A stretch of DNA of 62,536 nucleotides from positions 1 to 62,536 of the forward strand of contig CAZRZO010000003.1 of assembly GCA_964604635.1 (NCBI GenBank). The letters run 5' to 3'. The notes under the pieces were generated by a model. That model saw only the letters and a list, made by a program, of their open reading frames with translations. It did no database searches and had not been told where the DNA came from. A program made the translations under genes and the position numbers. This document shows positions 4,930 to 54,395 of this stretch, piece by piece. This DNA comes from Candidatus Micrarchaeota archaeon. Its GTDB lineage: Archaea; Micrarchaeota; Micrarchaeia; Micrarchaeales; Micrarchaeaceae. Within the stretch, counting starts at the first letter, position 1, and every line of letters starts with the position of its first letter.

Positions 4930-6876
4930 GTGGTTGTATTGAAAGAAAATGAAAAAGAAATAAAAAAAGAAACAATATTTGATAAAATCGAAAATATGAT
5001 ACCAAGTAGTATTGGTTTTATCAAAGCTGAATTTGAAGGTCCTGATATTGTTATTTATTTAAAAAATGCAAAAAGTATTTATCAAGACGATACAATAATC
5101 AAGACAATTGCAATAGAAATAAAGAAAAAAATAATAGTTAGAAGTGATTCAGCATCATTAATGGATCCAGAAGATGCACTTAAAGAAATAAAAGAATTAA
5201 TACCAGAAGAAGCAAAAACAGGAACAATTAGATTTTTACCTGAATTTAGTTCAGTATATATAGAAGCATTAAAACCAGGTTTAGTAATAGGAAAAAAAGG
5301 AACAACATTAAGATCAATAATGTACAAAACTGGCTGGATTCCAAAAGTATTAAGAATTCCAACAATGGATAGTTCTACTATTGATGGTGTTAGAAATTTA
5401 ATGTATAATGAGAGAGATTTCAGAAAAAAATTTCTATTAAATACTGGAAAGCAGATAAATAAACCACTAGTAAAAAGTGAATGGCTTAAAATAACTGCAC
5501 TAGGTGGTTATAGAGAAGTTGGAAGATCTTCAACATTAGTAGAGACTAAAAATTCAAAAATATTAATTGATTGTGGTATAAGTCCAGAACCAGGATTAAG
5601 AGGAAGTAAAGCAAATGAAAATCCAGAAATTAATAAAGCATTTCCTTATCTAGATGCAGCAAACTTTTCAATAGAAGAACTAGATGCAGTTGTATTAACT
5701 CATGCGCACATGGATCATATTGGTTTTGTGCCTTATTTATATAAATATGGATATACTGGACCTGTTTATTGTACACCACCAACAAGAGACCTAGCAGCAC
5801 TTCTTTTAAATGATTATTTTAAATTAGTGCAGAAAAGTGGTGGTACTCCATTATATGATGAAAAAGACATCAGAACAATGCTTATGCACACAATAGTAAG
5901 AAATTTTGGTGAAGTAACAAATATTACAAATGAATTAAAATTAACTTATCATAATTCTGGACATATCCTAGGGAGTGCACTTGTTCATTTACATGTTGGT
6001 GAGGGTGATTATAACCTAGTTCATACTGGTGACATGAAATATGGGTTTACACGATTATTTGATCCTGCTGACACAAAATACCCTAGAATGGATGCATTAT
6101 TTATTGAAAGTACTTATGGTGGTAATACTAATATTTCAGTAAATAGAAAGCAATCAGAAATAGATTTAATGAATATAATAAAGAAAACAATAGATAATAA
6201 AGGAAAAGTATTAATTCCTTTATTTGCAGTTGGAAGATCTCAAGAAATTCAATTAGTTATTGATTCTTATTTAAAATCCTATAAAATAGATGCTCCTGTT
6301 TATTTAGATGGTATGATATTAGAAGCAAGTGCAATTCATACTGCATATCCAGAATATTTAAAAGAATCACTTAAAAACATGATTTTAAATAATAGATCTC
6401 CTTTTGAAAGTGATATATTTGAAATAATAAAAGGTGAAAGAGAACATATAACTGAAAAAGGACCTTCAATTATTCTTGCTAGTGGTGGAATGTTAAATGG
6501 TGGAACAAGTTTTGAATATTTCAAAAAACTTGCAGATGACCCAAAAAATGCATTAATTTTTGTTGGTTTTAATAGTGCAAGTTCATTAGGACGAAGATTA
6601 CAAAATAATTTAAAAGAAGTTCCAATACTTGATGAAAATAATAAAATAATTCCATTAAAAGTAAATATGCAAGTTTATACTGTTGATGGATTTTCAGGAC
6701 ATAGTACTAGAAGACAATTAATTGATTTTGTAAAAGATTTAAGGCCAAAACCAAGTGAAATATATACAATGCATGGTGAAGAACAAAAATGTGAAGATTT
6801 AGCAAATATTCTTCGAAGAATTACAAATGTAAATACAAGAGCACCAAGAAATCTTGATTCAATTCGATTAAAATAA
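4930..6876 (+). CDS. aCPSF1 (KH domains + metallo-beta-lactamase/beta-CASP ribonuclease)
   Basis: N-terminal KH-like region, HAHMDH motif, beta-CASP region, ~640 aa. Adjacency to a proteasome subunit gene is common in archaea. Confidence 0.9.
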   Translation: MVVLKENEKEIKKETIFDKIENMIPSSIGFIKAEFEGPDIVIYLKNAKSIYQDDTIIKTIAIEIKKKIIVRSDSASLMDPEDALKEIKELIPEEAKTGTIRFLPEFSSVYIEALKPGLVIGKKGTTLRSIMYKTGWIPKVLRIPTMDSSTIDGVRNLMYNERDFRKKFLLNTGKQINKPLVKSEWLKITALGGYREVGRSSTLVETKNSKILIDCGISPEPGLRGSKANENPEINKAFPYLDAANFSIEELDAVVLTHAHMDHIGFVPYLYKYGYTGPVYCTPPTRDLAALLLNDYFKLVQKSGGTPLYDEKDIRTMLMHTIVRNFGEVTNITNELKLTYHNSGHILGSALVHLHVGEGDYNLVHTGDMKYGFTRLFDPADTKYPRMDALFIESTYGGNTNISVNRKQSEIDLMNIIKKTIDNKGKVLIPLFAVGRSQEIQLVIDSYLKSYKIDAPVYLDGMILEASAIHTAYPEYLKESLKNMILNNRSPFESDIFEIIKGEREHITEKGPSIILASGGMLNGGTSFEYFKKLADDPKNALIFVGFNSASSLGRRLQNNLKEVPILDENNKIIPLKVNMQVYTVDGFSGHSTRRQLIDFVKDLRPKPSEIYTMHGEEQKCEDLANILRRITNVNTRAPRNLDSIRLK

Positions 6877-6883
6877 AAAAATA

Positions 6884-7078
6884 TTATTTTTTTAAGAATT
6901 TTTTAAAATCAATTTCAATGATAAAAGCATTTTCTTGTTCTTTTTTTACTTTTCCAATAATTTTATTTTTTACTTTTTCAACAATATGATTTACTTCAAA
7001 ACTAATAAATTTAGATTTATTTTCAATAATTTTATTAATCTCAATATCTCTTTCAATACCAATTTCCATATTTATCAA
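6884..7078 (-). CDS. hypothetical protein (64 aa)
   Basis: Short K/E/I-rich ORF convergent with aCPSF1. No motif recognised. Confidence 0.3.
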   Translation of the reverse strand: MINMEIGIERDIEINKIIENKSKFISFEVNHIVEKVKNKIIGKVKKEQENAFIIEIDFKKFLKK

Positions 7079-7259
7079 TATTTATTTATTGAATAATTCT
7101 ATATATGTTTTTAGTAAAATCAAAATCAATTTGAATTTATTTTAATATTAAAATAAAAAAACAAAAATAAATTAATCATTAATAATTAAATACTTTCTTT
7201 AACAAGTAAATAAATATTAATTATTTTTTAAATAAAAGTTTAATATATCTGGTTTTATT

Positions 7260-7667
7260 ATGAGTGAAGAAATTTCAATTGTCCCAATGAAAGAACTAAA
7301 ATTAGGACGTTATATTTTAATAGACGATGTTCCTTGTAAGGTTATGGAAATAAATGTGAGTTCTCCTGGAAAGCATGGGGCAGCAAAAATGAGAATAGTA
7401 GCAATTGGTATATTTGATAGTCAAAAGAAAACATTATTAAAACCAAGTGAAAGTGATGTTCATGTACCAATAATTACAAAATCCAAGTCTCAAGTAGTAT
7501 CAATAAGCAATAATACTGCACAATTAATGGATTTAATTACATATTCTGTTTATGAAATACAAATTCCAGCAGAACTCCTAAAGAAAATAAAACCAGGCAA
7601 TGATGTTGAAATTATTGAAACAATGAATAAAAAAATAATATCAAGAATAGTAGGTGAATCTAAATGA
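7260..7667 (+). CDS. eif5a: translation initiation factor 5A (aIF5A)
   Basis: Hypusination loop SSPGKHGAAK plus an OB-fold C-terminus; 135 aa. Confidence 0.93.
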   Translation: MSEEISIVPMKELKLGRYILIDDVPCKVMEINVSSPGKHGAAKMRIVAIGIFDSQKKTLLKPSESDVHVPIITKSKSQVVSISNNTAQLMDLITYSVYEIQIPAELLKKIKPGNDVEIIETMNKKIISRIVGESK

Positions 7668-7972
7668 ATATAAAAATAGTTTCTGAATTTGAAAATAAAT
7701 TATTTGATAGAAAAGAGATTAAGTTTACAATTGATAATGGCAGATTACAAACTCCAAAAAAAGTAGATGTCAAAAGAGAATTATGCAAAAAATTAAGTCT
7801 AAATTCTAATAATATGGTTATAATAAAAATTAACCAAGAATTTGGATCTGGATTTATTGATTGTTATGCTCATTTTTATAATAAAGAAGAATTTATTACT
7901 AAATTTGAACCTGCTTATATTTTAAAAAGAAAAAACAGAGTAGAAAAAGTTCAAAAAGAAAAAACAGAATAA
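7664..7972 (+). CDS. rps24e: 30S ribosomal protein S24e
   Basis: N-terminus IVSEFENKLFDRKEIKF..TPKK.DVKRELCKKL matches S24e. ATGA overlap with aIF5A. Confidence 0.85.
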   Translation: MNIKIVSEFENKLFDRKEIKFTIDNGRLQTPKKVDVKRELCKKLSLNSNNMVIIKINQEFGSGFIDCYAHFYNKEEFITKFEPAYILKRKNRVEKVQKEKTE

Positions 7973-8000
7973 TAATTTATTTTAAATAAAATGTGAATAT

Positions 8001-8165
8001 ATGGCAAATGACAATAAAAAAAATATAAAAGAAAAAAAACCAAAAGTAATAAAACCTTTTAAAGAAAAAAAACAATGTCCTAAATGTTCTTCACGTATGG
8101 CAGATCATAAAGATAGATTTTCCTGTGGAAAATGTGGTTATACTGAATTCAAAACTAAAAAATAG
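8001..8165 (+). CDS. rps27ae: 30S ribosomal protein S27ae (zinc ribbon)
   Basis: Not in the ORF track. A 54-aa [35 protein letters not shown] with CxxC..CxxC sits in the conserved position after rps24e. Confidence 0.8.
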
Positions 8166-8180
8166 CCAAATTTAGTAGTA

Positions 8181-8876
8181 ATGGCGTTTATTTTGATTAA
8201 TTTAGAGGATAAGTTAAAATCAAAAGACAAAAAAATTAAATATTTAGTATATTCTTTATTACTTATTTGTATTTTTTCTTTACTATATTTTATTTATATT
8301 TCTTATTCTACTTTTTCTCAACTTGCTTTATCTAATTATTTAAATCTTAATACTACTATTTTAATTTCATTACTTTTTCCATTAATTGTTTTTTCTTATT
8401 TATTACATAAAACAAATGATTTTAGTTATGTAATTAAAGAATTAGGACTTAGTAGAGATAAATTAACACTAAAAAATATTATATATGGTATTGTACTTTT
8501 TTTAATCATATTAATATTTGTAGAATTTGGTATTACAATATTTTCAAGATTAACTAATATTGCTTTGCCAACACATGTACAACAATTATTACAAGGCTTT
8601 CCACTTTATTTTTATTTATTTATATTTTTAGTTGCGCCAATAAATGAAGAAATAATGTTTAGGGGTTTTCTTGTTTCAAGAATAGGTATTATTCCAAGTG
8701 CAATAATCTTTGCATTATTACATTTTAGTTATGCATCAATAGCTGAATTTGTTGCAGCACTAATATTTGGTTTATTAGCAGGATATGCATTAAAGAGAAC
8801 AAAATCATTATATGTTTCAATAATAGCACATATGATACTAAATTTTTTAACTATTTTAGTATTATTTTTAATTTAA
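8181..8876 (+). CDS. CPBP family intramembrane glutamic endopeptidase (CAAX protease-like)
   Basis: Polytopic membrane protein with the EEIMFRGF motif, LLHF and AHMILNF histidines. Confidence 0.8.
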   Translation: MAFILINLEDKLKSKDKKIKYLVYSLLLICIFSLLYFIYISYSTFSQLALSNYLNLNTTILISLLFPLIVFSYLLHKTNDFSYVIKELGLSRDKLTLKNIIYGIVLFLIILIFVEFGITIFSRLTNIALPTHVQQLLQGFPLYFYLFIFLVAPINEEIMFRGFLVSRIGIIPSAIIFALLHFSYASIAEFVAALIFGLLAGYALKRTKSLYVSIIAHMILNFLTILVLFLI

Positions 8877-9590: not shown

Positions 9591-10526
9591 TTATTTATTT
9601 TCCATTCTTTCCAACTTTCTTTTAATACTCATTAATAAATCAATTATAAGTCCTGTAATTATAAATAATACTCCAATTGTTAAAAAGAGAAAAGCTGTTA
9701 AAGCTCTTCCTGCTAATGTGAATTCATTTGTTGATATAAAAGAAATAATTACTTGAATACTAAAAAAGATTCCAATAACTATAAATATAATACCTGTTCC
9801 AGCGAATAATAGCAATGGATTGTAATCTCTTGCAAATCTTATAATATGAATTCCAACACCAATACCATATAAAAATTTTGATTTTGCTAATTTTGATTTT
9901 CCTGAATCTCTTTTATAATATTTTATTTGAACTTCTTTTATTTTATAGCCTTTTTTAGCAAGTTCAATTGCAAAGAATCCAATACCTGCTCTATAAGGAT
10001 TAATGTTTTTAATATTGTCAAATGCTTTTTTTCTTATAACAAATAAACCTGTTAATACATCATGTATTTTTATTCTAAATATTATACTATAAAGAAAAGA
10101 TAATGCAGTATTTCCAAACTTTAAATAAAAGTTCATTGATTCTTTCTGTAATCCATTGAGTCTATTTCCGAGTACAAAATCTGCATCATTATTTTTAATT
10201 AATTTAATCCCTTTTTTAATACCATCCAAATCATGAGTTCCATCAGCATCAATACTTGCTAAAATGTCTCCATGTGCATATCTTAAACCTTTTATTATTG
10301 CTGCTTCCACTCCTTTTTTTTCTTGTTCTAATATTGTAACTTTTGTTTTTATTAATTTTTTTAAATATTTTTTACTACTCATATTTACTATGATTATTTC
10401 AATATTATTTCCAAGAAGTTTTCTTAAATTAATTATTATTTTGAATAATGTTTCTTCTTCAATATTTGGAATTATAATACTTATTTTATATTTTTTATTG
10501 ATATTTTTTTTCTTTTTAATATTCAT
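9591..10526 (-). CDS. family 2 glycosyltransferase (dolichyl-phosphate glycosyltransferase-like) with C-terminal TM helices
   Basis: ISIIIPNIEEE start, DADGTHD motif, and two C-terminal TM helices as in Dpm1/AglD-type enzymes. Confidence 0.7.
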   Translation of the reverse strand: MNIKKKKNINKKYKISIIIPNIEEETLFKIIINLRKLLGNNIEIIIVNMSSKKYLKKLIKTKVTILEQEKKGVEAAIIKGLRYAHGDILASIDADGTHDLDGIKKGIKLIKNNDADFVLGNRLNGLQKESMNFYLKFGNTALSFLYSIIFRIKIHDVLTGLFVIRKKAFDNIKNINPYRAGIGFFAIELAKKGYKIKEVQIKYYKRDSGKSKLAKSKFLYGIGVGIHIIRFARDYNPLLLFAGTGIIFIVIGIFFSIQVIISFISTNEFTLAGRALTAFLFLTIGVLFIITGLIIDLLMSIKRKLERMENK

Positions 10527-10552
10527 TTTATCTATTTATAATTATTTAAACT

Positions 10553-10625
10553 TGCGAGAACCGGGATTCGAACCCGAGCTGCGGCCTTGGCAAGGCCGCG
10601 TCCTACCAGACTAGACTATACTCGC
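10553..10625 (-). tRNA. tRNA-Gly (GCC)
   Basis: Folded by hand into a cloverleaf. Anticodon loop TTGCCAA, T-loop TTCGAAT, one T:T mismatch in the acceptor stem. No encoded CCA. Confidence 0.85.
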
Positions 10626-10689
10626 ATTTATTATATCTCTATTAAATTATTTTATTAATTATTGCTTTATTTATTATTAAAATAAAAAT

Positions 10690-10801
10690 TGCCACAGGTC
10701 GGATTTGAACCGACGACATCCCGGTTTCTGTCTGAAACTTTATTAAGTTTTTGTCAAAATAATTACTTCAGCCGGACGCTCTCCCACTGAGCTACTGCAG
10801 C
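10690..10801 (-). tRNA. tRNA-Phe (GAA) with ~39-nt intron at canonical 37/38 position
   Basis: Acceptor GCTGCAG/CTGTGGC, D arm TAGCTCAGTGGGAGAGC, anticodon loop CTGAAG^A. The intron contains TTTCAG, complementary to the anticodon region. T arm GTCGGTTCAAATCCGAC. Confidence 0.88.
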
Positions 10802-10910
10802 AAATAAAATTAAAAATCAAATAAAAAAGATAAATAATTTAACTTATAAAAGTATTTAATTATTCTTATTTGAAAATCATTTTAAATTTTAACATTTATA
10901 AATAATAAAT

Positions 10911-12464
10911 ATGCTGAAAAATCAAAATTATTATTCTTTAATTAATATGGAACTTGTAGAGCAAAGAGATTATCAAACAAATATAATAAATAATATTTTA
11001 GATAAAAATTCTTTAGTTGTTCTTCCAACAGGTCTTGGTAAAACAATAATAGCATTATTTGCAATTTCTAATTGTTTATTTAATAATAAAAAAGCATTGT
11101 TTTTAGCTCCAACAAGACCATTGGCAGAGCAGCATTATAATTCAGCAATAAAATTTTTAAAACTTAATAAAGATAATAAATCTGAAATAGTTTTAATAAC
11201 TGGGATGTTAAATGCATTAAAAAGATCTGAAATAGAAAATAATGCAAAATTAATTGTTGCAACACCCCAAACAATTGCAAATGATTTGAAATCAAATAAA
11301 TTTTCTTTAGATGATTTTGGATTAATTATTTTTGATGAATGCCATAAAGCTATTGGTAAATATGCTTATATTTATATTGCAAATGAAGCAAAATTAAAAA
11401 ATATACATATAATTGGTTTAACTGCGTCTCCAGGAAGTGACAAAAAAAGATTACAAAAACTTATAAATTCTTTTGAAATAAAAACTATTGAAGTAAGAAT
11501 TTCAACTGATTATGATGTTTACAAATATGTAATGGATAAAAAAATTACAATTATAAAAGTTGAGAAAACTAAACCAATAAATGAAATAACATTATTATTA
11601 AAACCAATTATTGAAGAGCATTTGTTTAAATTAAGACGATATGGTTTTTGTTATTATAAAAAATTTGAAATAATTCCAAAAGCAAGATTATTAGAAATTG
11701 GTAAGTTGATTAGTAATATAGAAGCAGAAAATTATAAATTCATTGTTCTATTTGAATATATTTATATTTTAAATTTAATACATGCTTATGATCTAGTTTC
11801 AATAGAAGGTTTATTTGCATTTTATGCTTATTTTGAGAAACTAAAAAACAAAAAACAGAAAGGTAAAGCAGTATTAAATATTTTAAATAATAAAAATATT
11901 ATAATTGCAAAAAGTATTGCAAAAAAAGCTCTTGAAAGTGGATTAGAACATAAAAAAATGTTTAAAATTCTTGAATTATTAAAAACAAAGTTTCTTAATC
12001 AAACAATAATTATTTTTGCACAATATAGATCAACAATAGCAAAGCTTGTTGAAATTTTAAATAAAAGTAATATTCCATCAAAAGCATTTGTTGGAAAAAA
12101 AGAAGGTATTACACATATAATTCAAAAAAATACAATAGATGAATTTAGAAAAGGTTCTTTCAAAGTTCTTGTTGCAACATCAATTGGTGAAGAAGGATTA
12201 GATATTCCAAGTGTTGATACTGTTATATTTTATGAACCAGTTCCAAATGAAATAAGAAATATTCAAAGAAGAGGTAGAGCTGGAAGGATTAAATCAAGTG
12301 AAATAATAATATTAGTAACAAAAGACACAAAAGATGAAATATATTTGAATGTTTCTAAATTTAAAGAAATAAAAATGCAAAAAATATTATTAGAAATAAA
12401 AAATGAATTAATGCTGAAAAGCAACTTAAATGAAGAATTTGGTCAACAAAAATTATTCAAATAA
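10911..12464 (+). CDS. Hef/FANCM-like superfamily-2 helicase (helicase part only)
   Basis: DYQ..LVVLPTGLGKT (motif I), FDECH (II), TASP (III), ATSIGEEGLDIP (V), QRRGRAGR (VI). No ERCC4 nuclease domain follows. Confidence 0.75.
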   Translation: MLKNQNYYSLINMELVEQRDYQTNIINNILDKNSLVVLPTGLGKTIIALFAISNCLFNNKKALFLAPTRPLAEQHYNSAIKFLKLNKDNKSEIVLITGMLNALKRSEIENNAKLIVATPQTIANDLKSNKFSLDDFGLIIFDECHKAIGKYAYIYIANEAKLKNIHIIGLTASPGSDKKRLQKLINSFEIKTIEVRISTDYDVYKYVMDKKITIIKVEKTKPINEITLLLKPIIEEHLFKLRRYGFCYYKKFEIIPKARLLEIGKLISNIEAENYKFIVLFEYIYILNLIHAYDLVSIEGLFAFYAYFEKLKNKKQKGKAVLNILNNKNIIIAKSIAKKALESGLEHKKMFKILELLKTKFLNQTIIIFAQYRSTIAKLVEILNKSNIPSKAFVGKKEGITHIIQKNTIDEFRKGSFKVLVATSIGEEGLDIPSVDTVIFYEPVPNEIRNIQRRGRAGRIKSSEIIILVTKDTKDEIYLNVSKFKEIKMQKILLEIKNELMLKSNLNEEFGQQKLFK

Positions 12465-17416: not shown

Positions 17417-17521
17417 GCGGGAGTGGCAGAGTTTGGTCAAATGCGCAGGACTGAGGTGCTAAAATTTGCTTAGAACTTCTGTGTCTTAGAGACTGCGTGA
17501 GTTCGAATCTCACCTCCCGCA
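17417..17521 (+). tRNA. tRNA-Leu (GAG), class II, with ~19-nt intron at 37/38
   Basis: Acceptor GCGGGAG/CTCCCGC, anticodon stem CAGGA/TTCTG, loop CTGAGG^C. The intron contains CTTAG, which pairs with the anticodon region. Long variable arm GTCTtagAGAC, T arm GTGAGTTCGAATCTCAC. Confidence 0.85.
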
Positions 17522-20242: not shown

Positions 20243-20719
20243 ATGAATAAAAACATAAAATTTATTCATTGTGCTCTTCCAAATATTGATTTTAATAAAA
20301 TTTTAATAAAAGAAAATATAAAAATTAAAGCTGAATGTAAACAAATAACTATTTCTTGTTTACCATTTATAATTGAAATTAATTCTACTTTTAATATAAA
20401 AAATCAAATATTGATTATAAATAAGTATAATTATATTAAATTATTTTTTATGAAACCAAATAAATTATTTATTATTTATAATAAAAAATTGATTGAAATA
20501 GAAGAGATAAATGGGATCAATAAAAAAACAATCAACAAAAATCTTATTTGTGTAAATAATGGACTTGATGCTGCAAAATATATTAGATTAAAAAAATATT
20601 TTATTGTATTAAAATTTAATAAAATAGATATAATAAAAAAACAATTAAAAGTTATTATGTTTCTTACAAATTCAATAAATATTGAACAATTAAAAAAAGC
20701 ACCAGTAGTATTTAATTGA
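20243..20719 (+). CDS. hypothetical protein (158 aa)
   Basis: Uninterrupted ORF between rps2 and fni, a position where many archaea encode mevalonate-pathway kinases. No kinase motif recognised. Confidence 0.4.
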   Translation: MNKNIKFIHCALPNIDFNKILIKENIKIKAECKQITISCLPFIIEINSTFNIKNQILIINKYNYIKLFFMKPNKLFIIYNKKLIEIEEINGINKKTINKNLICVNNGLDAAKYIRLKKYFIVLKFNKIDIIKKQLKVIMFLTNSINIEQLKKAPVVFN

Positions 20720-21862: not shown

Positions 21863-22036
21863 ATCTGATTAGGCTAAAAGTATTTATATCAAAAGCAATA
21901 CAAGATAAATTAAATAATAAACATATTTAAATAAATTTAAAATATAATAAAATCAAAATGAGCAATAAAAAATTCATAACAACATAAAAAAACATTAGTC
22001 AATTATAATTTATAATAAAATATAAAATATAGGGGT

Positions 22037-24757
22037 TTGAAGATGATTAATGAAAAATCATTAATAAATATTTTAGATGATGATTCAACATCTATCCTTT
22101 CCCACATAAATCTTTTAAATAATAAAAAAAATAAAAAAATACAAATTCTTTCTATTGGTTCTATATTTAGCGGAACAAATGCATTTAGTAAAGATGCATT
22201 AATTGGATTAAACGAACTTCTAATTGAAAGAAAAAATAGTAATAATAATATTGATGTACTTTTAATGAATGGAGGTGTATTACCTTATGGTGCTTTATTA
22301 CCTTATTTGTCTAAAATATCAGCACCTCGTAGGTGGGATAAAATTCTTTCATTATCTGATAATATAAAATACATAGCAGATGCTTCTGAAATAATTAAAG
22401 TTCATTTAAATAGGATTTTCAATACAATTAATAAAAATACTAATATTATTTATGTATTAGGAGATGAAGATAAATTGAATATAAAAGATATATCAAGAAG
22501 TTTAAATTCAAAATTTAATTATGATCCTGAAAGTTTAAATGAATTGTATCTTGAGTTTAGAGATATGATAGAATCAAGAAAAGAAATTATTGATATAACA
22601 AAGTCTGCAATTAAAAAAAATAATAAAGCACTTGAAATAATGCAAAATCAGAAAAAAACTGAAAATTTAAATAAAATAGAGGAATATAAAAATAAAAATA
22701 ATAAAAATCATCAAGAATTGGTAAAAATACAACAAGAAATAAAAGAACTTATTGCATTAAATAAGCAAGTATTAGACCTATACTTATTAACTTTTAATTC
22801 ATTAGATATTAAAAATTTAAAAAGACTTAAAATAGATGTAAAACTAAAACTTATAAATACTACTGAAAAGATAAAACAAATTAAAGATCCTTTTTCTCAA
22901 GATTATAAAGTTTTAGAATTGCTTGGAAAAAAATTATCTAATAAATTAAGAGCAATAGATATTGCAAAAAGCAAATTAAAAAATTCAATTGATTCACAAA
23001 AAACAGCAGAAAATTCTAAACGTATTAATACATTTACTGGGAATATTCCAATAGAGCCACAATCTGCTAAAAAAATACAAAAATTAAGTTATGATTTTTA
23101 TTATTATATTTTAGGTTCTGCATTTGGTAGAAAAAGAGAAATAAAAGTAATTGGAAAAAAGCATTTTAATTTATTAGCTATTTCAAAAAATAAATTAAAG
23201 TTAAATACATTAATTACAAATAATCCTACAAATATTTCAAATAATTTTAAGATCAATGCAAATTCATCTATAAACATAACAATTGGAAATTTAATAAAAA
23301 AATTGCCTTTAGAACCTAATTTAGCTATTTCTGGACATACAACTGCAAATTCATTTACAATAATACCTTCACAAAATAATTCTAATAAAAATATAGCAAT
23401 ATTATGTTCTGGTCCTTTAATAGATCCTAATAAAGTATTTGAATTATGGAATCAAAAAATAAAAACAGAATTAACTAGTGCTTTTGAGAAATCAAGACTG
23501 TTTTCTGGTGTAACTATTATAGGGTATGATGGAGTTAATTTTAATTTAGATATTATAAAATATGATTATTTAATAAATAAAGCAAATCAAAGATATGAAA
23601 GTAAAAATGAAAAACAAGCAATAGAAAATATAAAACAAAAATTAAGATCAAGTGAAAATAATACTAATAATTATAATGGAGAAAAACTAGAAAAGATTAC
23701 AACACCAAATAAATTACCTTCAGAGATTAAGGATAAAGATATTGAATATATTGATTTAAAAGATTTTAATAAATTAAATAAAATTGTAAATACAGAAAAA
23801 TTAACAATTGCAAGTATAAGTGATATACATTTTGGTAGTGGTGAAACAAATATCAAAATTTTAAAAACATGTATTAAAGATATTGTAAAAAATTCACCAG
23901 ATTTATTAATACTTAATGGTGATATCATTGAAGGAAATCTTAATAATTATATGAATGTTTTAAAAGAATATAAAAAACCAGAAATTATAAGCGAATATAA
24001 AAATTGGCTTAAAAATATCAAAAAATTAGATAAATCTAAAATTTTAATGCAAATGAATACTTTTTATACTGAATATATAAACACTATTCCAATACAGAAT
24101 ATAGACGCACAAGTTGAACCTTTATTAAAAATATTAACTCCTGCTATTGATAAAATTGTTGAAAATAATGGTTATATTATTATTACAAGTGGAAATCATT
24201 ATAATAAAACTTATAAAGATAATAAATTAGATGAAAGTGAAAAATTAGGAAGTGCACTAAAATTATATATTAGTGGAAAAGCAAGAAATTTTAATAATGT
24301 TAAGGTGATTCATGGGTCAAGTGAGGGAACAGGTGTATTTTCAATTAATAATAAAATAAAAATATTAGTGTCACATGATCTTGGAAAAGATATATCTTCT
24401 ATTACAAATAAATTAAGAAAAAAGAATTCTGAAACTCAAATTAATATAGGATCTCATAGACATCAAATATGGCAGGGGGATACTATTGATAATAGTATTG
24501 TTCTTACACCCTCTTTAACTTCTGTTAAAGAAAATTCATTTTTACAATCAACAAATCAACCAATTGGTAAAATAAATGGTTATATTTACTCAAAATATGA
24601 ATTTACTAAAGATAAAATAATAAGACATGAATTTTATCCAAAAATTAATAATTTTTTTAATAAATTAAAAACAAAAGACTTATTTGAAGAATTTTTATCA
24701 ACAAAATCAAATTTAGAAGTTGATAAAAAAACAAGAAAACAGAAAAATAAATCTTAG
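22037..24757 (+). CDS. large uncharacterised protein: degenerate metallophosphoesterase-like N-half with coiled-coil insert, plus intact calcineurin-like metallophosphoesterase C-half
   Basis: C-half motifs: ISDIHFGSG, LNGDIIEGN, TSGNHYN, VSHDLG, GSHRHQ. The N-half has the same motif order with metal ligands lost: LSIGSIFSG, LMNGGVLPYG, VLGDEDK, ISGHTTAN. Residues ~165-335 are K/E/N/Q-rich and heptad-like. The likely start is the ATG at 22043. Confidence 0.6.
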   Translation: MKMINEKSLINILDDDSTSILSHINLLNNKKNKKIQILSIGSIFSGTNAFSKDALIGLNELLIERKNSNNNIDVLLMNGGVLPYGALLPYLSKISAPRRWDKILSLSDNIKYIADASEIIKVHLNRIFNTINKNTNIIYVLGDEDKLNIKDISRSLNSKFNYDPESLNELYLEFRDMIESRKEIIDITKSAIKKNNKALEIMQNQKKTENLNKIEEYKNKNNKNHQELVKIQQEIKELIALNKQVLDLYLLTFNSLDIKNLKRLKIDVKLKLINTTEKIKQIKDPFSQDYKVLELLGKKLSNKLRAIDIAKSKLKNSIDSQKTAENSKRINTFTGNIPIEPQSAKKIQKLSYDFYYYILGSAFGRKREIKVIGKKHFNLLAISKNKLKLNTLITNNPTNISNNFKINANSSINITIGNLIKKLPLEPNLAISGHTTANSFTIIPSQNNSNKNIAILCSGPLIDPNKVFELWNQKIKTELTSAFEKSRLFSGVTIIGYDGVNFNLDIIKYDYLINKANQRYESKNEKQAIENIKQKLRSSENNTNNYNGEKLEKITTPNKLPSEIKDKDIEYIDLKDFNKLNKIVNTEKLTIASISDIHFGSGETNIKILKTCIKDIVKNSPDLLILNGDIIEGNLNNYMNVLKEYKKPEIISEYKNWLKNIKKLDKSKILMQMNTFYTEYINTIPIQNIDAQVEPLLKILTPAIDKIVENNGYIIITSGNHYNKTYKDNKLDESEKLGSALKLYISGKARNFNNVKVIHGSSEGTGVFSINNKIKILVSHDLGKDISSITNKLRKKNSETQINIGSHRHQIWQGDTIDNSIVLTPSLTSVKENSFLQSTNQPIGKINGYIYSKYEFTKDKIIRHEFYPKINNFFNKLKTKDLFEEFLSTKSNLEVDKKTRKQKNKS

Positions 24758-25345
24758 TTGATTTGGATGAGAAAAGAGATAAAAAAAACAGATGAAAATA
24801 TTCGAAATCTGTTAAGGACTCAATCAGATAAATATAACATTAGAAATTATAATCCTTCTTCTTTTGAAATTGATGTTGCAGGACTTTTGATAAAGAATAA
24901 TATAACTTTTGAATTCAATAAAAAATTAGTTTTCTACAATAATCCAAATAATTATAATATTTTTAAAAAATGGATTGATCTTAAAAATAATACTATTTCT
25001 ACAAATATAGATATAGAAAATAAATCTTCTGAAATTTTTAGACCTGATTTTATTATTAATGATTTAAAATCTAATAATAAACCAATTATACTTGAACCTC
25101 ATGGAAAGCAATATTTTCACAATAAAAAAATAAATAAATATAAATCATTCATGAACCTTTTTGGATCTTCTTATTATTTTATTATAATAACAGATTTAAC
25201 AAGAAAGATATTAGAAACAAAATTAAAAGAACTAGATTTAAAATTAAATGATATTTGTAATGAATTATGGTTTTCAAAAAAAAACAATTTAAATTCTCTT
25301 GACTCTAAAATCAATAAAATGAAAATTAAATACCAATTGAGATAA
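24758..25345 (+). CDS. small uncharacterised protein, PD-(D/E)xK (Vsr/DUF559-like) nuclease-fold candidate
   Basis: SFEIDVAGLL..ITFEF, then FRPDFII and IILEPHGKQYFH, follows the E...D...E-x-x-G-(K/H) order of restriction-endonuclease-like folds. It starts on the nucleotide after the TAG stop of the 906-aa gene (TTG at 24758, or ATG at 24767). Confidence 0.4.
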   Translation: MIWMRKEIKKTDENIRNLLRTQSDKYNIRNYNPSSFEIDVAGLLIKNNITFEFNKKLVFYNNPNNYNIFKKWIDLKNNTISTNIDIENKSSEIFRPDFIINDLKSNNKPIILEPHGKQYFHNKKINKYKSFMNLFGSSYYFIIITDLTRKILETKLKELDLKLNDICNELWFSKKNNLNSLDSKINKMKIKYQLR

Positions 25346-32934: not shown

Positions 32935-33058
32935 GGGCTCGTAGCTCAGCTTGGATAGAGCAATAGCCTTCTAAGCTAAAGGTCGCGGGTTCAAAATAAA
33001 TTTTTAAGAAATTCAATACCAATAACTTAAAAATTAAATGAAAATCCCGCCGAGCCCG
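32935..33058 (+). tRNA. tRNA-Arg (UCU) with 49-nt intron inside the T-loop
   Basis: Acceptor GGGCTCG/CGAGCCC, D arm GCTCAGCTTGGATAGAGC, anticodon loop CTTCTAA. The T stem GCGGG/CCCGC encloses 56 nt that begin TTCAAA and end TGAAAAT. Confidence 0.8.
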
Positions 33059-40361: not shown

Positions 40362-43300
40362 TTAAGGCATTGTTAAATTATTATGGATCCAAAATGGTTT
40401 TGTTGGTGTATTTGGTAAAGTTCCTGTAAAGTTATTTAACTTAAGAATTCTTAATGGTAATGTATAATTTATTAAATTAATACCATTTGTATATGTATTT
40501 GAAATATTTGGCCAAACTTCTTTAAATCCATTTAATTTCCCATAAAAAAATCCTTTATAGAAATTAGAATTATAAAAGTATGATGGTGCATTTTCAACTG
40601 TATTATTTGGACCATTTGGTGTGTAAATTACTAATTCACTCACATAATCTTGGTTATTAATTGGAATTATGCCTTGATATGTTATTCTAGGATCATTAAA
40701 CGAAACAAATGCATTTAATTTTTGTTTTGTTGATGAATATAATCTTAATGCGTTATTTTTATTTGGTTTTGAATTAATACAAACAGTATGATTTTCTAAT
40801 GAATTATTTACTACTAAATATGATTTAATAAATAAATCAGTATTATTTGAAAAAGAACAATAATTATCAATATTTTGTTTGCTTGAATTTGGAATAATTG
40901 CTGATAATGGAATTAATGCATATTCTGGATCATGTGTTATTTCACATTGTGAATGACCTAAAGCATATGGAACTGGTGGATTTTGTGAATGTCCTTCTGC
41001 AATTGCAAATGCTTTTGATGTAGCATTTATATTAATACAAGCTAAGAAGTCTAATGCACCCCATTTTGGTATTAATCCCCCATCAAATATTATGTATTCT
41101 GTTTGATTTGTATTCATAAAATTAATTAATTTTGATTCATTATAACCATATATTGGTCCAAGTACATAATTTGCAGCAGCACTATAATCTTCTTTTGAAA
41201 CTGAGTTATCTCCTCTTAATACTGCATTACTATTTCCAAACCAGTTAATCCAGTCACCATAATCCCACCATGATAAAATTCTAGGTCCATAAGGTCCAAT
41301 ATTCTGTTTCATCCATTGTGTTGCACTTAACCAATAATAAGGTACTTGATTACAAAATGCGTCTGAACCAATAAGATTTCCAGAACTTCTAAATGTACTG
41401 CATTCCTGAGAAATATTAGAATTAGTATTATAATGTACAATTACTGCTTGAATTGATTGTATCATTGATTTACTTTCACCAAAAATAAAGGTTCCTATAC
41501 TAATAACAGAAGTAATTTCAATTAATATAATAATTATTATTAATACAATAAACACATTTCTTTGATTTTTAGTACTTATTATTTTTTTATTAAATACTAG
41601 ATAAAATAAGAATATTAATGCTAAAATTGAAGAAATAAAGAACAATGCAATTGCAAAAACTGAAAATGCAAATGTTTTATTATTTAAATAAACAGATTTT
41701 AATGCTGATTTTATATCTAAGTTTTTAAATTCAGTAAAATTTTTACTTTTTAATACTAATATTTCTCCTATTAAAATACCAATTATCATTACATATGCAA
41801 CGCTTAAATGGGGAATATATTTAACTTCTGATAATCCTGCAAATAATAAAGGAAATAAAATTACAAGATATAAAACTCCAACTTTATCTCTTCTAAATAT
41901 AATACTTATTAATATCAATAAGACTCCAATAATAATTACTGTAAAAAATAACAATGAAAAATTAAAAAGTCCAATAGCAATAATTCCAAATCCATTGCTA
42001 GCAAAATTAAATCTTAATCCTGTTGGAATGAATTCCTGAACAGTCATAAATAAAGGTGTTGAAGGTGTTGTAAATTTAGCACTTAAATTAAGATAATCAT
42101 GAATTGGCTTTCCAATTGGGGTAAATAATATAATTAAACTTAAAATAATTACAATAAATACAAAAAATAATAAATAAGATTTAAAGTCAAGTTTTTTAAA
42201 TAATATTTTATATTTATAAAGTATTTTTGGAAAATATTCTAATATTGCAATAATTAATAATGCAAATAAAGGTCCACTTAATGTTATTGGAATTCCTAAT
42301 ACATTTGGGATTCGGCCACTAAGAGTTGCATGATATTGATGATAAATTACTAGAAAAATTGCAATAATACTAATTACTATTGCATTCATTTTATAGAAAT
42401 TTATATCCCAATCTCTTCTTAAGATATTTATTATCCCTTGAATTAAAATATATAATGTAAGTACTCCTGCATCAACAGTATAATAATGTGCTCCTAAAAA
42501 TGTTGAAGCAAATGCAATACCAGCTAAAATAGCAAATCTATGATTTTTCATATTTTTTACTGCTAGCATATATGTTGCAAAGAAAAAGAATAAAGAAAAT
42601 ATACCCCATGGTTCTAATAATTGTTCTCCAGCAACAAATGTTGTAAATAAAACAGGAATTGTTGCGATTAATCCAGCACTTATTAATCCAACTTTCTCAT
42701 CATATTGTTTATATATTAATAAAAATATCACAAAAACTAATAATGCTGCAACTAAAGGTGGATATACACTACTCACTTTGCTCATTAATGCTGTATTAAA
42801 TGTTGAATAATGTGTAAATATATTCATTAAACTATACCAATATGCTTCTAAATAAGGTATTATTGGTTGTATTCTCAATACAGTTCCTTGTGCAACAACA
42901 GGCCATGCAGAGGGTGAATATAATAATTGATATCCATATGTTAAGATTGATTGAGTATTAATCATATCAAAATAAGGATCAAATTCAAAATAAGTGGATG
43001 AAGTACCTAATCCAATTATTCTTGTTATAAATACAATAAGCATTAATACAAATAAAATTCCAAATGCAATTTTTGTAATATCTCTTATTTTACTTTTCAA
43101 AGGTTTGTTATTTTTTAAATTATTCAATAATATTTCTTCTTCTTTTTTATGCATTTCTATTAATTGATTTTCTTCTTTTTTATGCATTTCAATAATTTTT
43201 TGTTTTTCTTCAATTGACAATTCTGAAATGTTCTGTAATTCATTTATTTGTTTTAATTTAAGATTCTTTTCTTCTTCAATATGGTCTTTTAGTATATTTT

Positions 43301-43712
43301 CTGCTTTTTGAAATTGTTTTAATTCTTGTCTTAATTCATTTATATCTAATTCATATTCATTTTTTAATTCTTGTCGTTCTTCTTTTTCTTTAATAATAAA
43401 GAAATCCGAGAACACTTTTTTTGTTATAATTCCTTGTTGTATACATAATATAAATCCAATTATTGAAAGAATAAGTGCATTTAGTTCAAATAACCCTAAT
43501 GAAAACGAAAAAAAATGAATATAATTAATAAAATAAGATTCAATCCAAGTTAAAGTTGCTGGTGCAATAAGTCCAAAAATAAAACCAATTACCCCAATTT
43601 CAAATAATCTTAAATCTGTTTTTTTTAAAAGTGCTAAAGCTAAAAGAAATCCTGGAATAAATAGTGATAAAAATGCAATAATACTTGCAATAATTGTTCC
43701 AATAATTATCAT
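40362..43712 (-). CDS. aglB: oligosaccharyltransferase AglB (STT3 family) with N-terminal 3-TM + coiled-coil extension
   Basis: WWDYGDW motif (SWWDYGDWINW), EFDPYFD first-loop motif, more than 13 TM, large C-terminal soluble domain. Confidence 0.9.
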   Translation of the reverse strand: MIIIGTIIASIIAFLSLFIPGFLLALALLKKTDLRLFEIGVIGFIFGLIAPATLTWIESYFINYIHFFSFSLGLFELNALILSIIGFILCIQQGIITKKVFSDFFIIKEKEERQELKNEYELDINELRQELKQFQKAENILKDHIEEEKNLKLKQINELQNISELSIEEKQKIIEMHKKEENQLIEMHKKEEEILLNNLKNNKPLKSKIRDITKIAFGILFVLMLIVFITRIIGLGTSSTYFEFDPYFDMINTQSILTYGYQLLYSPSAWPVVAQGTVLRIQPIIPYLEAYWYSLMNIFTHYSTFNTALMSKVSSVYPPLVAALLVFVIFLLIYKQYDEKVGLISAGLIATIPVLFTTFVAGEQLLEPWGIFSLFFFFATYMLAVKNMKNHRFAILAGIAFASTFLGAHYYTVDAGVLTLYILIQGIINILRRDWDINFYKMNAIVISIIAIFLVIYHQYHATLSGRIPNVLGIPITLSGPLFALLIIAILEYFPKILYKYKILFKKLDFKSYLLFFVFIVIILSLIILFTPIGKPIHDYLNLSAKFTTPSTPLFMTVQEFIPTGLRFNFASNGFGIIAIGLFNFSLLFFTVIIIGVLLILISIIFRRDKVGVLYLVILFPLLFAGLSEVKYIPHLSVAYVMIIGILIGEILVLKSKNFTEFKNLDIKSALKSVYLNNKTFAFSVFAIALFFISSILALIFLFYLVFNKKIISTKNQRNVFIVLIIIIILIEITSVISIGTFIFGESKSMIQSIQAVIVHYNTNSNISQECSTFRSSGNLIGSDAFCNQVPYYWLSATQWMKQNIGPYGPRILSWWDYGDWINWFGNSNAVLRGDNSVSKEDYSAAANYVLGPIYGYNESKLINFMNTNQTEYIIFDGGLIPKWGALDFLACININATSKAFAIAEGHSQNPPVPYALGHSQCEITHDPEYALIPLSAIIPNSSKQNIDNYCSFSNNTDLFIKSYLVVNNSLENHTVCINSKPNKNNALRLYSSTKQKLNAFVSFNDPRITYQGIIPINNQDYVSELVIYTPNGPNNTVENAPSYFYNSNFYKGFFYGKLNGFKEVWPNISNTYTNGINLINYTLPLRILKLNNFTGTLPNTPTKPFWIHNNLTMP
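43137..43190. repeat. tandem duplication inside aglB (21-nt exact core, 33-nt period)
   Basis: TTCTTCTTTTTTATGCATTTC occurs at 43137-43157 and 43170-43190. It encodes EMHKKEE twice, 11 aa apart, within the coiled-coil insert. Confidence 0.8.
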
Positions 43713-52679: not shown

Positions 52680-54395
52680 TTAAATTCTATTTGATAAATT
52701 AAATAATCCTTTAATAATTTTTGTTTTGTTTAAAACAGTATAGTTCATTATTAAATTATATGAATTAATTATACTTATTTGACTAGAAAGTCCATTACAT
52801 GAAATATTAAGTATTAAAGAATTATCAGATCCAATTGTTTTATTTATTGTTTGATTAGATTCAAAACCTGAATCATAGCAAGCAATTGTGTTTATTTTAA
52901 TACTATTATTCATTTTATTTGTAATATTTAATGAAGCAACTGAATTAAGATAATTAAAATTATAATAACTGCAATTTAATAAAGTGCTGTCTAATGAACA
53001 TTTATTAATTGTTTTCCAAGAAAAAGATGTTTGGTTAAAATTTAATCTATTAATTAAACTTTGTGCAATTCTAGAAGCATAAATTGATAAATTATTATTT
53101 ACAATTGAATAAAGACCAAGTTTATAATTTTTTGTAAATTCTGTTGAATTAACAATTGAAAAATTTAAAGTATTTAATGAAATAAAATCACTACAAACAT
53201 GTGTATTATTTTGATTAGATAAAATACCTTTGCATGTTTTATTAAAAGTAATTAATTGTTTGTTATTGTGTATTATATAATTGATGAATGTACCATATTT
53301 ACTATCAAATAATCTATAAAAACCAGAAGAATTATTATTATATGTACTAATTAAACCAATGTTTGAAACATTAGTGAATATAAATTTAGAACTATTTTTT
53401 ATAAAAACAGGATTACTAGTAAATATTGATTCAATTGAATTATAATTATTTGTTTGATAATTCTTTTTAATTATATTTAAACAAGAATTAGAATTATTTG
53501 AATTATTTTTATATGCAATAATTTTAGTCCACCCTTGCTGATAAAAATAACAAATACTTTTATTATTATCAATTTTTATAAAATTCACATTAATTTTTTT
53601 CTGATTATTTATTTCATTTTTATTATAATTTAAATTTATAGTATAATTTGTATTATAAATATTTGAAAATGTAGAAACAACAGTACTAATAAATTCAGGT
53701 TTTAAATTTCCTTGTATCCAAGTAGAATATGCTGATGTATTATTATTATATCTAATATAAAGTCCATTCAATATATTCATATGGTTTGATAAATCATAAA
53801 AAATTTTAGATAAAATAATTTGAGAAAAAACAATATTATTTAAAAAATCATTTTTATTGAAATTAATATCAATAAAAGGAATTGCAGTAATGCCTTGTTT
53901 ATATAATGAAAATGTTTCTAATGCTTGTATGTTATTATCAGGAATTGATGAGGGAATATCTAAAACGCTTTGAAGTTTTTTTACTTTAATATTAATATTA
54001 CTCTTTATTGTTGAAGTATTAGAAATAGTTCGTACTAATGAAGGATTTGCAATTATTTCAAAATTAAATATTCCTGATTTATTATAAGTATAATTTAAAG
54101 TTGTTGTAATATTTTTATAAGGTGGTAATGAAACAGTATATGATTTAATTAAACTATGATTTAAATAAAATCCCAAAACTAAATTTTTAATATAATTAGA
54201 TCCAGTATTGTTTATTTGTATTTTAAAATAAGATGTTTCAAAAGGATATAATATTGTATTTGATGAATTACTTGATAAAGATACATTTATTTTATAAACA
54301 TGGTTTGTTTTTATAATTAAGATACTACTAACAATACTAAGTATTACAATTGCTAAGATAATATAGATTATTATATTTAAATTAATTTTTTTTAT
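52680..54395 (-). CDS. Asn-rich, heavily sequon-laden surface protein with N-terminal TM/signal anchor; proposed ATA start
   Basis: The track gives a TTG start at 54176, but the frame stays open to 54419. It encodes KKINLNIIIYIILAIVILSIVSSILII, preceded by GGTGAT (54404-54399) plus AAT plus ATA (54395). More than 30 NxS/T sequons. Confidence 0.6.
   Translation of the reverse strand: MKKINLNIIIYIILAIVILSIVSSILIIKTNHVYKINVSLSSNSSNTILYPFETSYFKIQINNTGSNYIKNLVLGFYLNHSLIKSYTVSLPPYKNITTTLNYTYNKSGIFNFEIIANPSLVRTISNTSTIKSNINIKVKKLQSVLDIPSSIPDNNIQALETFSLYKQGITAIPFIDINFNKNDFLNNIVFSQIILSKIFYDLSNHMNILNGLYIRYNNNTSAYSTWIQGNLKPEFISTVVSTFSNIYNTNYTINLNYNKNEINNQKKINVNFIKIDNNKSICYFYQQGWTKIIAYKNNSNNSNSCLNIIKKNYQTNNYNSIESIFTSNPVFIKNSSKFIFTNVSNIGLISTYNNNSSGFYRLFDSKYGTFINYIIHNNKQLITFNKTCKGILSNQNNTHVCSDFISLNTLNFSIVNSTEFTKNYKLGLYSIVNNNLSIYASRIAQSLINRLNFNQTSFSWKTINKCSLDSTLLNCSYYNFNYLNSVASLNITNKMNNSIKINTIACYDSGFESNQTINKTIGSDNSLILNISCNGLSSQISIINSYNLIMNYTVLNKTKIIKGLFNLSNRI

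Follow-up and report, generated by a model that had tools for sequence, protein, structure and literature searches.

The DNA analysed here, called the window, is a stretch of 62,536 nucleotides (nt) from a Candidatus Micrarchaeota archaeon (contig CAZRZO010000003.1, assembly GCA_964604635.1) with a G + C content of about 21%. It carries housekeeping genes of archaeal type, including those encoding aCPSF1/FttA, A-type ATPase subunits, SerRS, pyruvate kinase and topoisomerase I. This work concerns two neighbouring genes on its forward strand, one encoding a large protein with an intact and a degenerate metallophosphoesterase (MPE) domain and the other a small protein with a predicted PD-(D/E)xK-like fold.

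The large protein gene is located at 22043..24757 (+) and encodes 904 amino acids (aa) from ATG 22043, and the small protein gene is located at 24767..25345 (+) and encodes 192 aa from ATG 24767. The mechanically defined open reading frames (ORFs) begin at TTG codons, one at 22037 (906 codons, 22037-24757, intact) and the other at 24758 (195 codons, 24758-25345). The two TTG codons are most likely only mechanical limits, since the database gene calls (P0001, 904 aa, for the large protein and P0007, 192 aa, for the small one) and the N-termini of the homologues point to the ATG starts; a GGGG motif lies 8 nt 5' of ATG 22043. The original prediction for this locus, made from the sequence alone, had the small ORF starting on the nucleotide after the TAG stop of the large one. 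With the start moved to ATG 24767, a gap of 9 nt is left, and the genes do not abut. The peptides quoted in that prediction were all found at the residue numbers given there in both proteins, and the numbering below likewise follows the 906-aa frame for the large protein and the 195-aa frame for the small one.

Pfam also confirmed the flanking genes that had been named as fni and a convergent trmI: upstream lies a gene for an FMN_dh-type protein (the type-2 isopentenyl diphosphate (IPP) isomerase, fni, of the prediction), and downstream, 22 nt from the small gene, the convergent gene for a GCD14/TrmI protein. The AT-rich intergenic region 5' of the large gene (21863..22042, +) is presumed to contain the promoter of a two-gene transcription unit.

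Domain organisation and family of the large protein

The C-terminal part of the large protein is an intact MPE domain (residues 586-875, 23792..24661, +), delimited by a match to Pfam Metallophos PF00149, by the invariant residues of the family and by the motif spacing. The complete calcineurin-like series of five motifs that had been predicted in the C-terminal ~300 residues is present and is conserved in 48 full-length homologues. On the forward strand, it consists of motif I with D596-x-H598 (ISDIHFGSG, residues 594-602, 23816-23842), motif II with G628-D629 (LNGDIIEGN, residues 626-634, 23912-23938), motif III with G719-N720-H721-Y (TSGNHYN, residues 717-723, 24185-24205), motif IV with H780 (VSHDLG, residues 778-783, 24368-24385) and motif V with G-x-H807-x-H809 (GSHRHQ, residues 805-810, 24449-24466). 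Residues D596, H598, G628-D629, G719, H721, H780 and H809 are invariant or at least 90% kept among the 48 homologues, and as these share only 19-28% identity, the active site is under selection. Some positions vary: the Asn of motif III is replaced by Gln in about 8 of the 48 members, the first His of motif V is replaced by Asp in some, and a Tyr (GNHY) stands at the motif III position that is occupied by Asp or Glu in the superfamily. The Pfam match itself scored 27.3 bits (cut-off 21.5, E 5.8e-6), and its aligned span, residues 590-652, covers motifs I-II only; PF00149 matches 17 of the 48 family members and PF12850 matches 12.

In the live domain, motifs II and III are separated by a distance that hardly varies across the family (87-89 aa; insert 23939-24184). 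This insert carries a family-specific motif, P-I-x-N-[IV]-D-x-Q with an invariant Gln, which reads PIQNIDAQ in the window (residues 685-692, 24089-24112). No obvious signal peptide or hydrophobic segment was seen at the N-terminus when the sequence was read without a prediction tool, and the best reading is that the large protein is a cytoplasmic member of its family.

The N-terminal part resembles a degenerate copy of the same domain. It is interrupted by a helical insert, which leaves a first part (residues 33-165, 22133..22531, +) with degenerate motifs I (LSIGSIFSG, residues 38-46), II (NGGVLP, within LMNGGVLPYG, residues 76-85) and III (VLGDEDK, residues 140-146), and a second part (residues 336-520, 23042..23596, +) with the peptide FTGNIP, degenerate motif V (ISGHTT, within ISGHTTAN, residues 431-438) and a conserved GP-x-x-D...WN...KT-x-x-T block. 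No Pfam match was obtained for this domain. The hhalign comparison of the N-terminal half, with the insert removed, against the C-terminal half using 48-sequence profiles gave a probability of 88.7% and an E-value of 2.5e-6 over 205 columns, colinear through the five motif positions, the second part of the N-terminal domain aligning with motifs IV-V of the C-terminal one; the same comparison with only six sequences reached 30%. Weak secondary matches of the C-domain hidden Markov model (HMM) were also found on motifs I-II of the N-domain, and homologue P0004 has kept GDIHSG as motif I of its N-domain. The ligand positions of the N-terminal half are degenerate in 48 of 48 members, with the forms IGE-x-GGGT, NGG-x-LP and YV-x-G-x-x-D-x-x-N. 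An internal duplication of the MPE is well supported by the profile alignments, and the N-terminal domain is probably a derived pseudo-MPE, whose fold is poorly modelled by AlphaFold2. The tandem of a dead and a live phosphoesterase with replaced ligands in the N-terminal half, as originally proposed, was thus borne out by hhalign and by the 48-member alignment.

The helical insert (residues 166-335, 22532..23041, +) follows degenerate motif III and is present at this position of the pseudo-MPE in 48 of 48 members, with a length of 102-314 aa and a median of about 200. The AlphaFold2 model of the large protein, computed from a 6-sequence alignment, is poor (mean predicted local distance difference test score, pLDDT, 46); the insert is its best part, with helices at residues 164-204, 209-255, 258-281 and 288-326 and block-mean pLDDT values mostly of 63-82. 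Only 3 of the 171 residues between positions 165 and 335 are Pro or Gly. The heptad signal over the same residues is moderate (z = 2.2) and was reached by 12 of 500 shuffled sequences, and when the PDB sequences were searched with the profile of the full-length family, coiled-coil chains dominated the matches, among them designed antiparallel coiled coils, keratins and syntaxin. The insert is probably an antiparallel coiled coil or a helical bundle, as judged from the predicted helices. The original prediction of a coiled-coil insert of about 170 aa in the dead copy holds as regards a long helical insert, and the heptad evidence that it is a coiled coil is only moderate. Taken on its own, the architecture of a dead and a live MPE in tandem with a helical insert is very probable.

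The two domains are joined by an inter-domain linker (residues 521-585, 23597..23791, +), which varies between 39 and 164 aa across the family. The linker contains a K-[LR]-P-S-E-[LIM] motif (residues 559-563, 23711-23725) in nearly all of the 48 members, which resembles a short linear motif of the kind used for interaction or modification.

To determine the extent of the family, a profile of six close homologues was run exhaustively with HMMER against 1.84 billion representative proteins (E < 1e-3); 94 clusters at 50% identity were obtained, about 55 of them full-length (840-1130 aa). The hosts are mostly Micrarchaeota/Micrarchaeia, some of them labelled Marsarchaeota, and one subgroup belongs to Woesearchaeota; the source annotations of the members are 'hypothetical protein' or 'predicted phosphodiesterase' (JGI) only. 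The large protein appears to represent an unnamed family nearly restricted to DPANN archaea. A further member with the full architecture (855 aa, 5330-7897 of locus L029) comes from a bin that carries the label Methanosarcinales; given its resemblance to the Woesearchaeota protein P0066, mis-binning is possible. A gene for a 294-aa AAA+ ATPase lies directly 3' of it (7961-8845).

Searches of Pfam, NCBIfam, PADLOC and PHROGs with both proteins and their homologues returned only generic Metallophos and weak matches, in agreement with the original statement that neither protein is assignable to a named family. NCBIfam gave sub-threshold generic MPE matches for the C-domains (YaeI, LpxG, YfcE, PdeM, SbcD and DP1). 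The phmmer and hmmsearch comparisons of the single large protein with the PDB sequences gave no match. With the C-domain profile, human MRE11A (E 0.0016), the PolD small subunit (0.003) and SbcD (0.008) ranked first; these values are marginal, and the alignments to Mre11A, DP1 and SbcD cover the superfamily motifs only (I-II and V). The PHROG 'DNA repair exonuclease' matches motifs I-II with E-values of 4e-8 to 8e-11, likewise a marginal affinity. In the Foldseek ranking, E. coli SbcD came out on top (E 4e-4), with Mre11 and polymerase B-subunits next, which is a weak lead only as the query was the low-confidence model. Nothing relevant was found in the searchable literature on Mre11/Rad50, metallophosphoesterases or RadA in Micrarchaeota.

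The small protein and the genomic neighbourhoods

The small ORF contains the peptides SFEIDVAG (residues 35-42), RPDFII (95-100) and LEPHGKQYFH (112-121). Its AlphaFold2 model, based on an 8-sequence alignment, has a pLDDT of 80.7 and a predicted template modelling score (pTM) of 0.77, with low confidence only at a variable loop (residues 62-86). The Foldseek search of this model against the PDB returned Can2 nuclease domains, VC1899, Cas4 SSO0001, McrC, NucS/EndoMS, Mus81-Eme1, Bax1 and type II restriction enzymes (E from 4e-3, probability up to 0.99), and the search against BFVD returned DUF2726, DUF559, Vsr-like proteins, TnsA, endonuclease I and restriction enzymes (E from 2.4e-5); the template modelling (TM) scores are modest (0.3-0.45). 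The residues E37, P96-D97 and E113-P-H115-G are invariant in nine homologues, including distant ones, and form a core E...PD...E-P-H-G, in which, according to the model, the Glu lies in a helix before the sheet, a strand begins with the PD (RPDFII) and the following strand ends with the E-P-H-G. A PD-(D/E)xK-like fold is supported by the model, and a nuclease activity is predicted only.

The Vsr/DUF559-type fold first suggested for the second gene was retained at the level of the PD-(D/E)xK fold: the small protein matches DUF559, DUF2726 and Vsr-like viral proteins in fold only, and its sequence does not belong to the Vsr or DUF559 profiles (PF03852, PF04480). The proposed order of E, D and E-x-x-G-K/H residues stands for the conserved E, PD and E-P-H-G; the Lys of EPHGK is not conserved, the distant homologues having EPHGH or EPHGN, and the position of the Lys in the PD-(D/E)xK signature is occupied by His. 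The small protein had no Pfam, NCBIfam or PADLOC match, none of eight homologues had a Pfam match at E up to 1, and the search of the PDB sequences with its profile gave nothing meaningful. The precomputed annotation gives P0007 the Pfam entry PF27151.1, which was absent from the local Pfam scan and for which no paper was found.

Thirty-two loci were examined, with flanks of about 7 kb, or less on short contigs (1.7 kb downstream in L032). Twenty genome loci and three metagenome loci had been retrieved by the exact SGNHYNKT motif (8-member alignment), so that these loci sample about one third of the family and are biased towards carriers of this motif. In the close clade, which comprises five species-level lineages with large proteins of 49-89% identity, the small gene follows the large one on the same strand after 8 to about 110 nt, and the gene order rpl13-rps9-rpoN-rps2-(158-aa ORF)-fni-large gene-small gene-...-trmI is conserved. 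In two further loci (L017 and L018), whose large proteins are 28% identical, a homologue of the small protein is encoded on the same strand 2.4 kb downstream, and a DUF981 gene and DUF929 (plus one further ORF, c17, in L018) lie in between. In 17 further loci (L014-16, L019-32), the flanks of about 7 kb (less on short contigs) revealed no small gene, although an iterated profile with a limit as permissive as E 10 was applied, and a metagenome scan for the small protein gave no match. The most distant homologue of the small protein, P0014 (L008), adjoins an unrelated 351-aa protein at a locus without a large gene. The gene upstream of P0014 was tested as a split C-domain of the large protein, which it is not.

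Elsewhere, the neighbours of the large gene include genes for an ABC transporter, SecY, TatD, AdoMet decarboxylase, SufBD, PAC2, DeoC, a DHH phosphoesterase and DUF929. A recurrent pair consists of an ORF of about 168 aa without a Pfam match (c17) and a DUF929 gene (c12), which are convergent and lie directly after the large gene in L019-L020, L023-L025, L030 and L031. In L018 (8567-10140), the pair is present with the DUF981 gene intervening, L017 has the DUF929 gene only (10281-11321), and in L021 and L028 the pair is rearranged and not adjacent to the large gene. The c17 protein showed no detectable relation to the small protein. A link to isoprenoid metabolism, considered because of the fni gene upstream and an HMG-CoA-synthase-like match upstream of the large gene in another clade, was rejected: the HMGCS match is below the cut-off, and the other genes in the neighbourhood of that clade encode a DHH phosphoesterase and DUF2666, not enzymes of the mevalonate pathway.

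No relatives of the large or the small protein were found in 2.9 million viral contigs, and no mobile-element genes flank the large gene at the loci examined. PADLOC-DB v2 gave no match except NsnC (Menshen), with an E-value of 0.0014, for one distant homologue of the small protein. Core synteny in the close clade, variable neighbourhoods elsewhere and the absence of viral relatives argue that the large gene belongs to the chromosome throughout its lineage and that its neighbour is optional, and they do not point to a mobile defence island or an obligate pair. The earlier description of the two genes as a two-gene module and an undescribed system could not be upheld, as adjacency is limited to the sub-clade of the window, one other clade has the two genes at a distance of 2.4 kb, and in 17 loci no small gene was detected within about 7 kb (less on short contigs). 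Its suggestion of a role in defence fared no better, given the absence of a meaningful PADLOC match and of viral-contig relatives and a core or housekeeping setting that drifts by ordinary rearrangement.

Several other features were noted in the window. The 158-aa ORF (20243-20719, +) between rps2 and fni is kept there in all close relatives with 39-55% identity, and its last 32 residues match the C-terminus of type-2 IPP isomerase (TIGR02151, E 4.7e-6), the sole database signal; it may be what is left of an fni gene, a partial copy of fni or a small protein unrelated to it. Two ORFs, one of 1116 aa (40362-43712, -) beside tRNA-Ile and one of 498 aa (52680-54176, -), gave no Pfam match with an E-value of 1e-5 or below. 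Rfam tRNA matches that were not called by ARAGORN were found at 10690-10801 (-, 112 nt), 17417-17521 (+, 105 nt) and 32935-32993 (+, 59 nt), and these probably represent archaeal tRNA genes that contain introns or are atypical in some other way.

Proposed activity and alternative explanations

The architecture and the distribution of the family can be regarded as established by sequence comparison, and it is the function that we infer. We tentatively favour, at somewhat less than even odds, reading the large protein as a single-chain pseudo-dimeric phosphodiesterase of nuclease type with an optional nuclease-fold partner. The family would have originated by internal duplication of a calcineurin-like MPE, and the C-terminal copy, with all its ligands, would form the single catalytic centre. 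The dead N-terminal copy most likely serves as a structural partner, like the second subunit in Mre11/SbcD dimers, which would give an intramolecular pseudo-dimer with a presumably similar geometry. The helical arm and the K(L/R)PSE motif of the linker would most likely mediate oligomerisation or the tethering of a partner or substrate. The most probable activity would be a Mn2+- or Fe-dependent hydrolysis of phosphodiester bonds on nucleic-acid ends or structures, similar to that of Mre11, SbcD or DP1 and without an ABC ATPase. Processing of DNA ends is a reasonable inference from the marginal similarity to SbcD, Mre11 and DP1; that the substrate is nucleic acid at all seems possible, with slightly lower confidence than the favoured reading as a whole. 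In the sub-clade of the window, the small gene is probably co-transcribed with the large one, and its product may cooperate in DNA processing. The small gene would be an accessory, lineage-specific neighbour rather than an obligate second component, and a functional coupling of the two proteins is doubtful.

Several observations weigh against this reading. The large protein is known from sequence and predicted models alone, and the pLDDT of 46 means that neither the pseudo-dimer geometry nor the SbcD-like ranking by Foldseek is reliable. The similarity to Mre11, SbcD and DP1 (E 1e-3 to 1e-2) is no better than that to generic MPEs such as YaeI, LpxG and YfcE, which leaves room for a small-molecule substrate. 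Motif III reads GNHY where Mre11/SbcD nucleases have GNHD, and the approximately 95 residues after motif V seem too few for an Mre11-type capping domain and Rad50-binding helices. The absence of the small gene beside the large one in 17 of the 32 loci and its occurrence alone in L008 argue against functional dependence. Both genes also evolve faster than their surroundings: the large protein is 51% and the small protein 43% identical where fni, TrmI, S2 and TopA are 65-81% identical. At greater distance, large proteins are 24-28% identical where the neighbouring ABC transporter is 48-58% identical.

A first alternative explanation is that the large protein acts on a substrate other than nucleic acid (nucleotides, cyclic or oligonucleotide signals, polyphosphate or a phosphoprotein), or is mainly a structural protein or coiled-coil scaffold, with an unrelated neighbour whose adjacency merely reflects genome compaction. 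It agrees with the generic character of the NCBIfam matches, which concern YaeI, LpxG, YfcE and PdeM as much as SbcD, with a JGI label that goes no further than 'predicted phosphodiesterase', and with neighbourhoods that lack a DNA-repair theme and do not conserve the pair. However, the top solved relatives by profile and by Foldseek, as well as the PHROG match, are nucleases or polymerase subunits, and a 900-aa two-domain protein with a long arm would be unusual for a small-molecule hydrolase. Moreover, the tight linkage of the small gene in five lineages and its presence nearby in a distant one speak against an unrelated neighbour. We consider this explanation rather unlikely, though the most serious of the alternatives. 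If the large protein were instead a diverged orthologue of Mre11 or DP1 that replaced the canonical gene in reduced genomes, its conservation across a phylum with small genomes would be expected, and Mre11A, DP1 and SbcD would naturally be its top solved relatives. The form of motif II, G-D-x-x-E-G, also resembles that of DP1, which is G-D-x-V-D-G, and this similarity is visible in the PDB profile alignment. Yet the E-values are marginal and confined to motifs shared by the whole superfamily, no DNA_pol_E_B or Mre11-specific match was obtained, the NCBIfam scores for sbcd and PRK04036 fall far short of the cut-off, no Rad50/SbcC or DP2 gene is adjacent in the 32 loci, and neither an OB (oligonucleotide/oligosaccharide-binding) fold nor a capping domain is evident, which makes orthology very unlikely.

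The most improbable of the explanations is a two-gene system for defence against viruses or plasmids, in which a phosphodiesterase effector or sensor would act with a restriction-like nuclease. The combination of a nuclease fold with a phosphoesterase and the fast evolution resemble defence genes, one distant homologue of the small protein weakly matches NsnC (Menshen), and the top Foldseek matches of the small protein are the CRISPR-ancillary nucleases Can2 and Card1-like. Nevertheless, neither the large protein nor the small protein of the window has a PADLOC match, and relatives on viral contigs are lacking. The synteny in the close clade is that of a stable core (ribosomal proteins, rpoN, rps2, fni, trmI, topA), with housekeeping contexts elsewhere. 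In addition, the large gene is apparently present in one copy per locus, most lineages lack the small gene at its side, and there are no mobile-element flanks.

The genomes of DPANN archaea are only about 1 Mb in size. Nevertheless, a protein of about 900 residues, unnamed and with only a partial Metallophos match in Pfam, persists throughout Micrarchaeota and extends into Woesearchaeota. Should the pseudo-dimer reading hold, an enzyme family that normally acts as homodimers has been recast as a single chain, in which a live and a dead copy stand in tandem together with a helical arm of their own. If the protein acts on DNA ends, it bears on end-processing and repair in ultra-small archaea and on whether a machine of coiled coil and MPE can work without an ABC ATPase.

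Comparison with known systems

The large protein shares with Mre11/SbcD the five-motif di-metal MPE site, and these nucleases are its top solved relatives by HMM profile. Both also combine paired MPE domains with a long coiled coil, provided by the homodimer with Rad50/SbcC in the known complexes and by the presumed pseudo-dimer with its own arm here. In contrast to Mre11/SbcD, the two MPE copies are located in one chain and one of them is dead, the arm of about 170-200 aa lies inside the dead MPE and has neither ABC ATPase heads nor a CxxC zinc hook, and an extra 88-aa insert separates motifs II and III. NCBIfam TIGR00619 (sbcd) gave an E-value of 0.035 and 13.9 bits against a cut-off of 77.65, TIGR00583 (mre11) was not among the matches listed, and no Rad50/SbcC or DP2 gene was found within about 7 kb of the large gene.

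DP1 and the polymerase B-subunits likewise contain MPE domains; DP1 is among the best PDB profile matches (E 0.003-0.03), and Dpb2 and the Pol alpha B-subunit are among the Foldseek matches of the low-confidence model. The B-subunits of Pol alpha and Pol epsilon are a precedent for catalytically dead MPE copies that serve as structural modules. Unlike in the polymerase subunits, the live and dead copies are fused here in one polypeptide, and no OB fold was detected. PF04042 (DNA_pol_E_B) matched none of the 48 members, and PRK04036 matched 1 of 19 C-domains with an E-value of 0.017. Given that there is no family-level score, no adjacent Rad50/SbcC or DP2 gene, no OB fold and only a short tail, membership in either Mre11/SbcD or DP1 is not supported by the tests applied.

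The small protein resembles the PD-(D/E)xK superfamily (Can2/Card1, Cas4, NucS, Mus81 and DUF2726/DUF559/Vsr) in its fold, with match probabilities of 0.93-1.0, and in the canonical order of its conserved residues. It differs in having His in place of Lys and a variable disordered insert of 25-35 aa between the first two core elements. The two proteins could be combined in a bolder comparison, in which the large protein is a DPANN-specific, ATPase-free analogue of Mre11-Rad50 (SbcCD), a one-chain nuclease 'dimer' with its own arm that processes DNA ends or hairpins, and some lineages recruit an adjacent PD-(D/E)xK endonuclease; with only marginal similarities behind it, we regard this analogue as a long shot. 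Both folds are well known. The large protein is new in its arrangement, a dead and a live MPE fused in one chain that also contains a helical arm; this arrangement is conserved throughout a DPANN phylum and has no name in Pfam, NCBIfam or the searchable literature.

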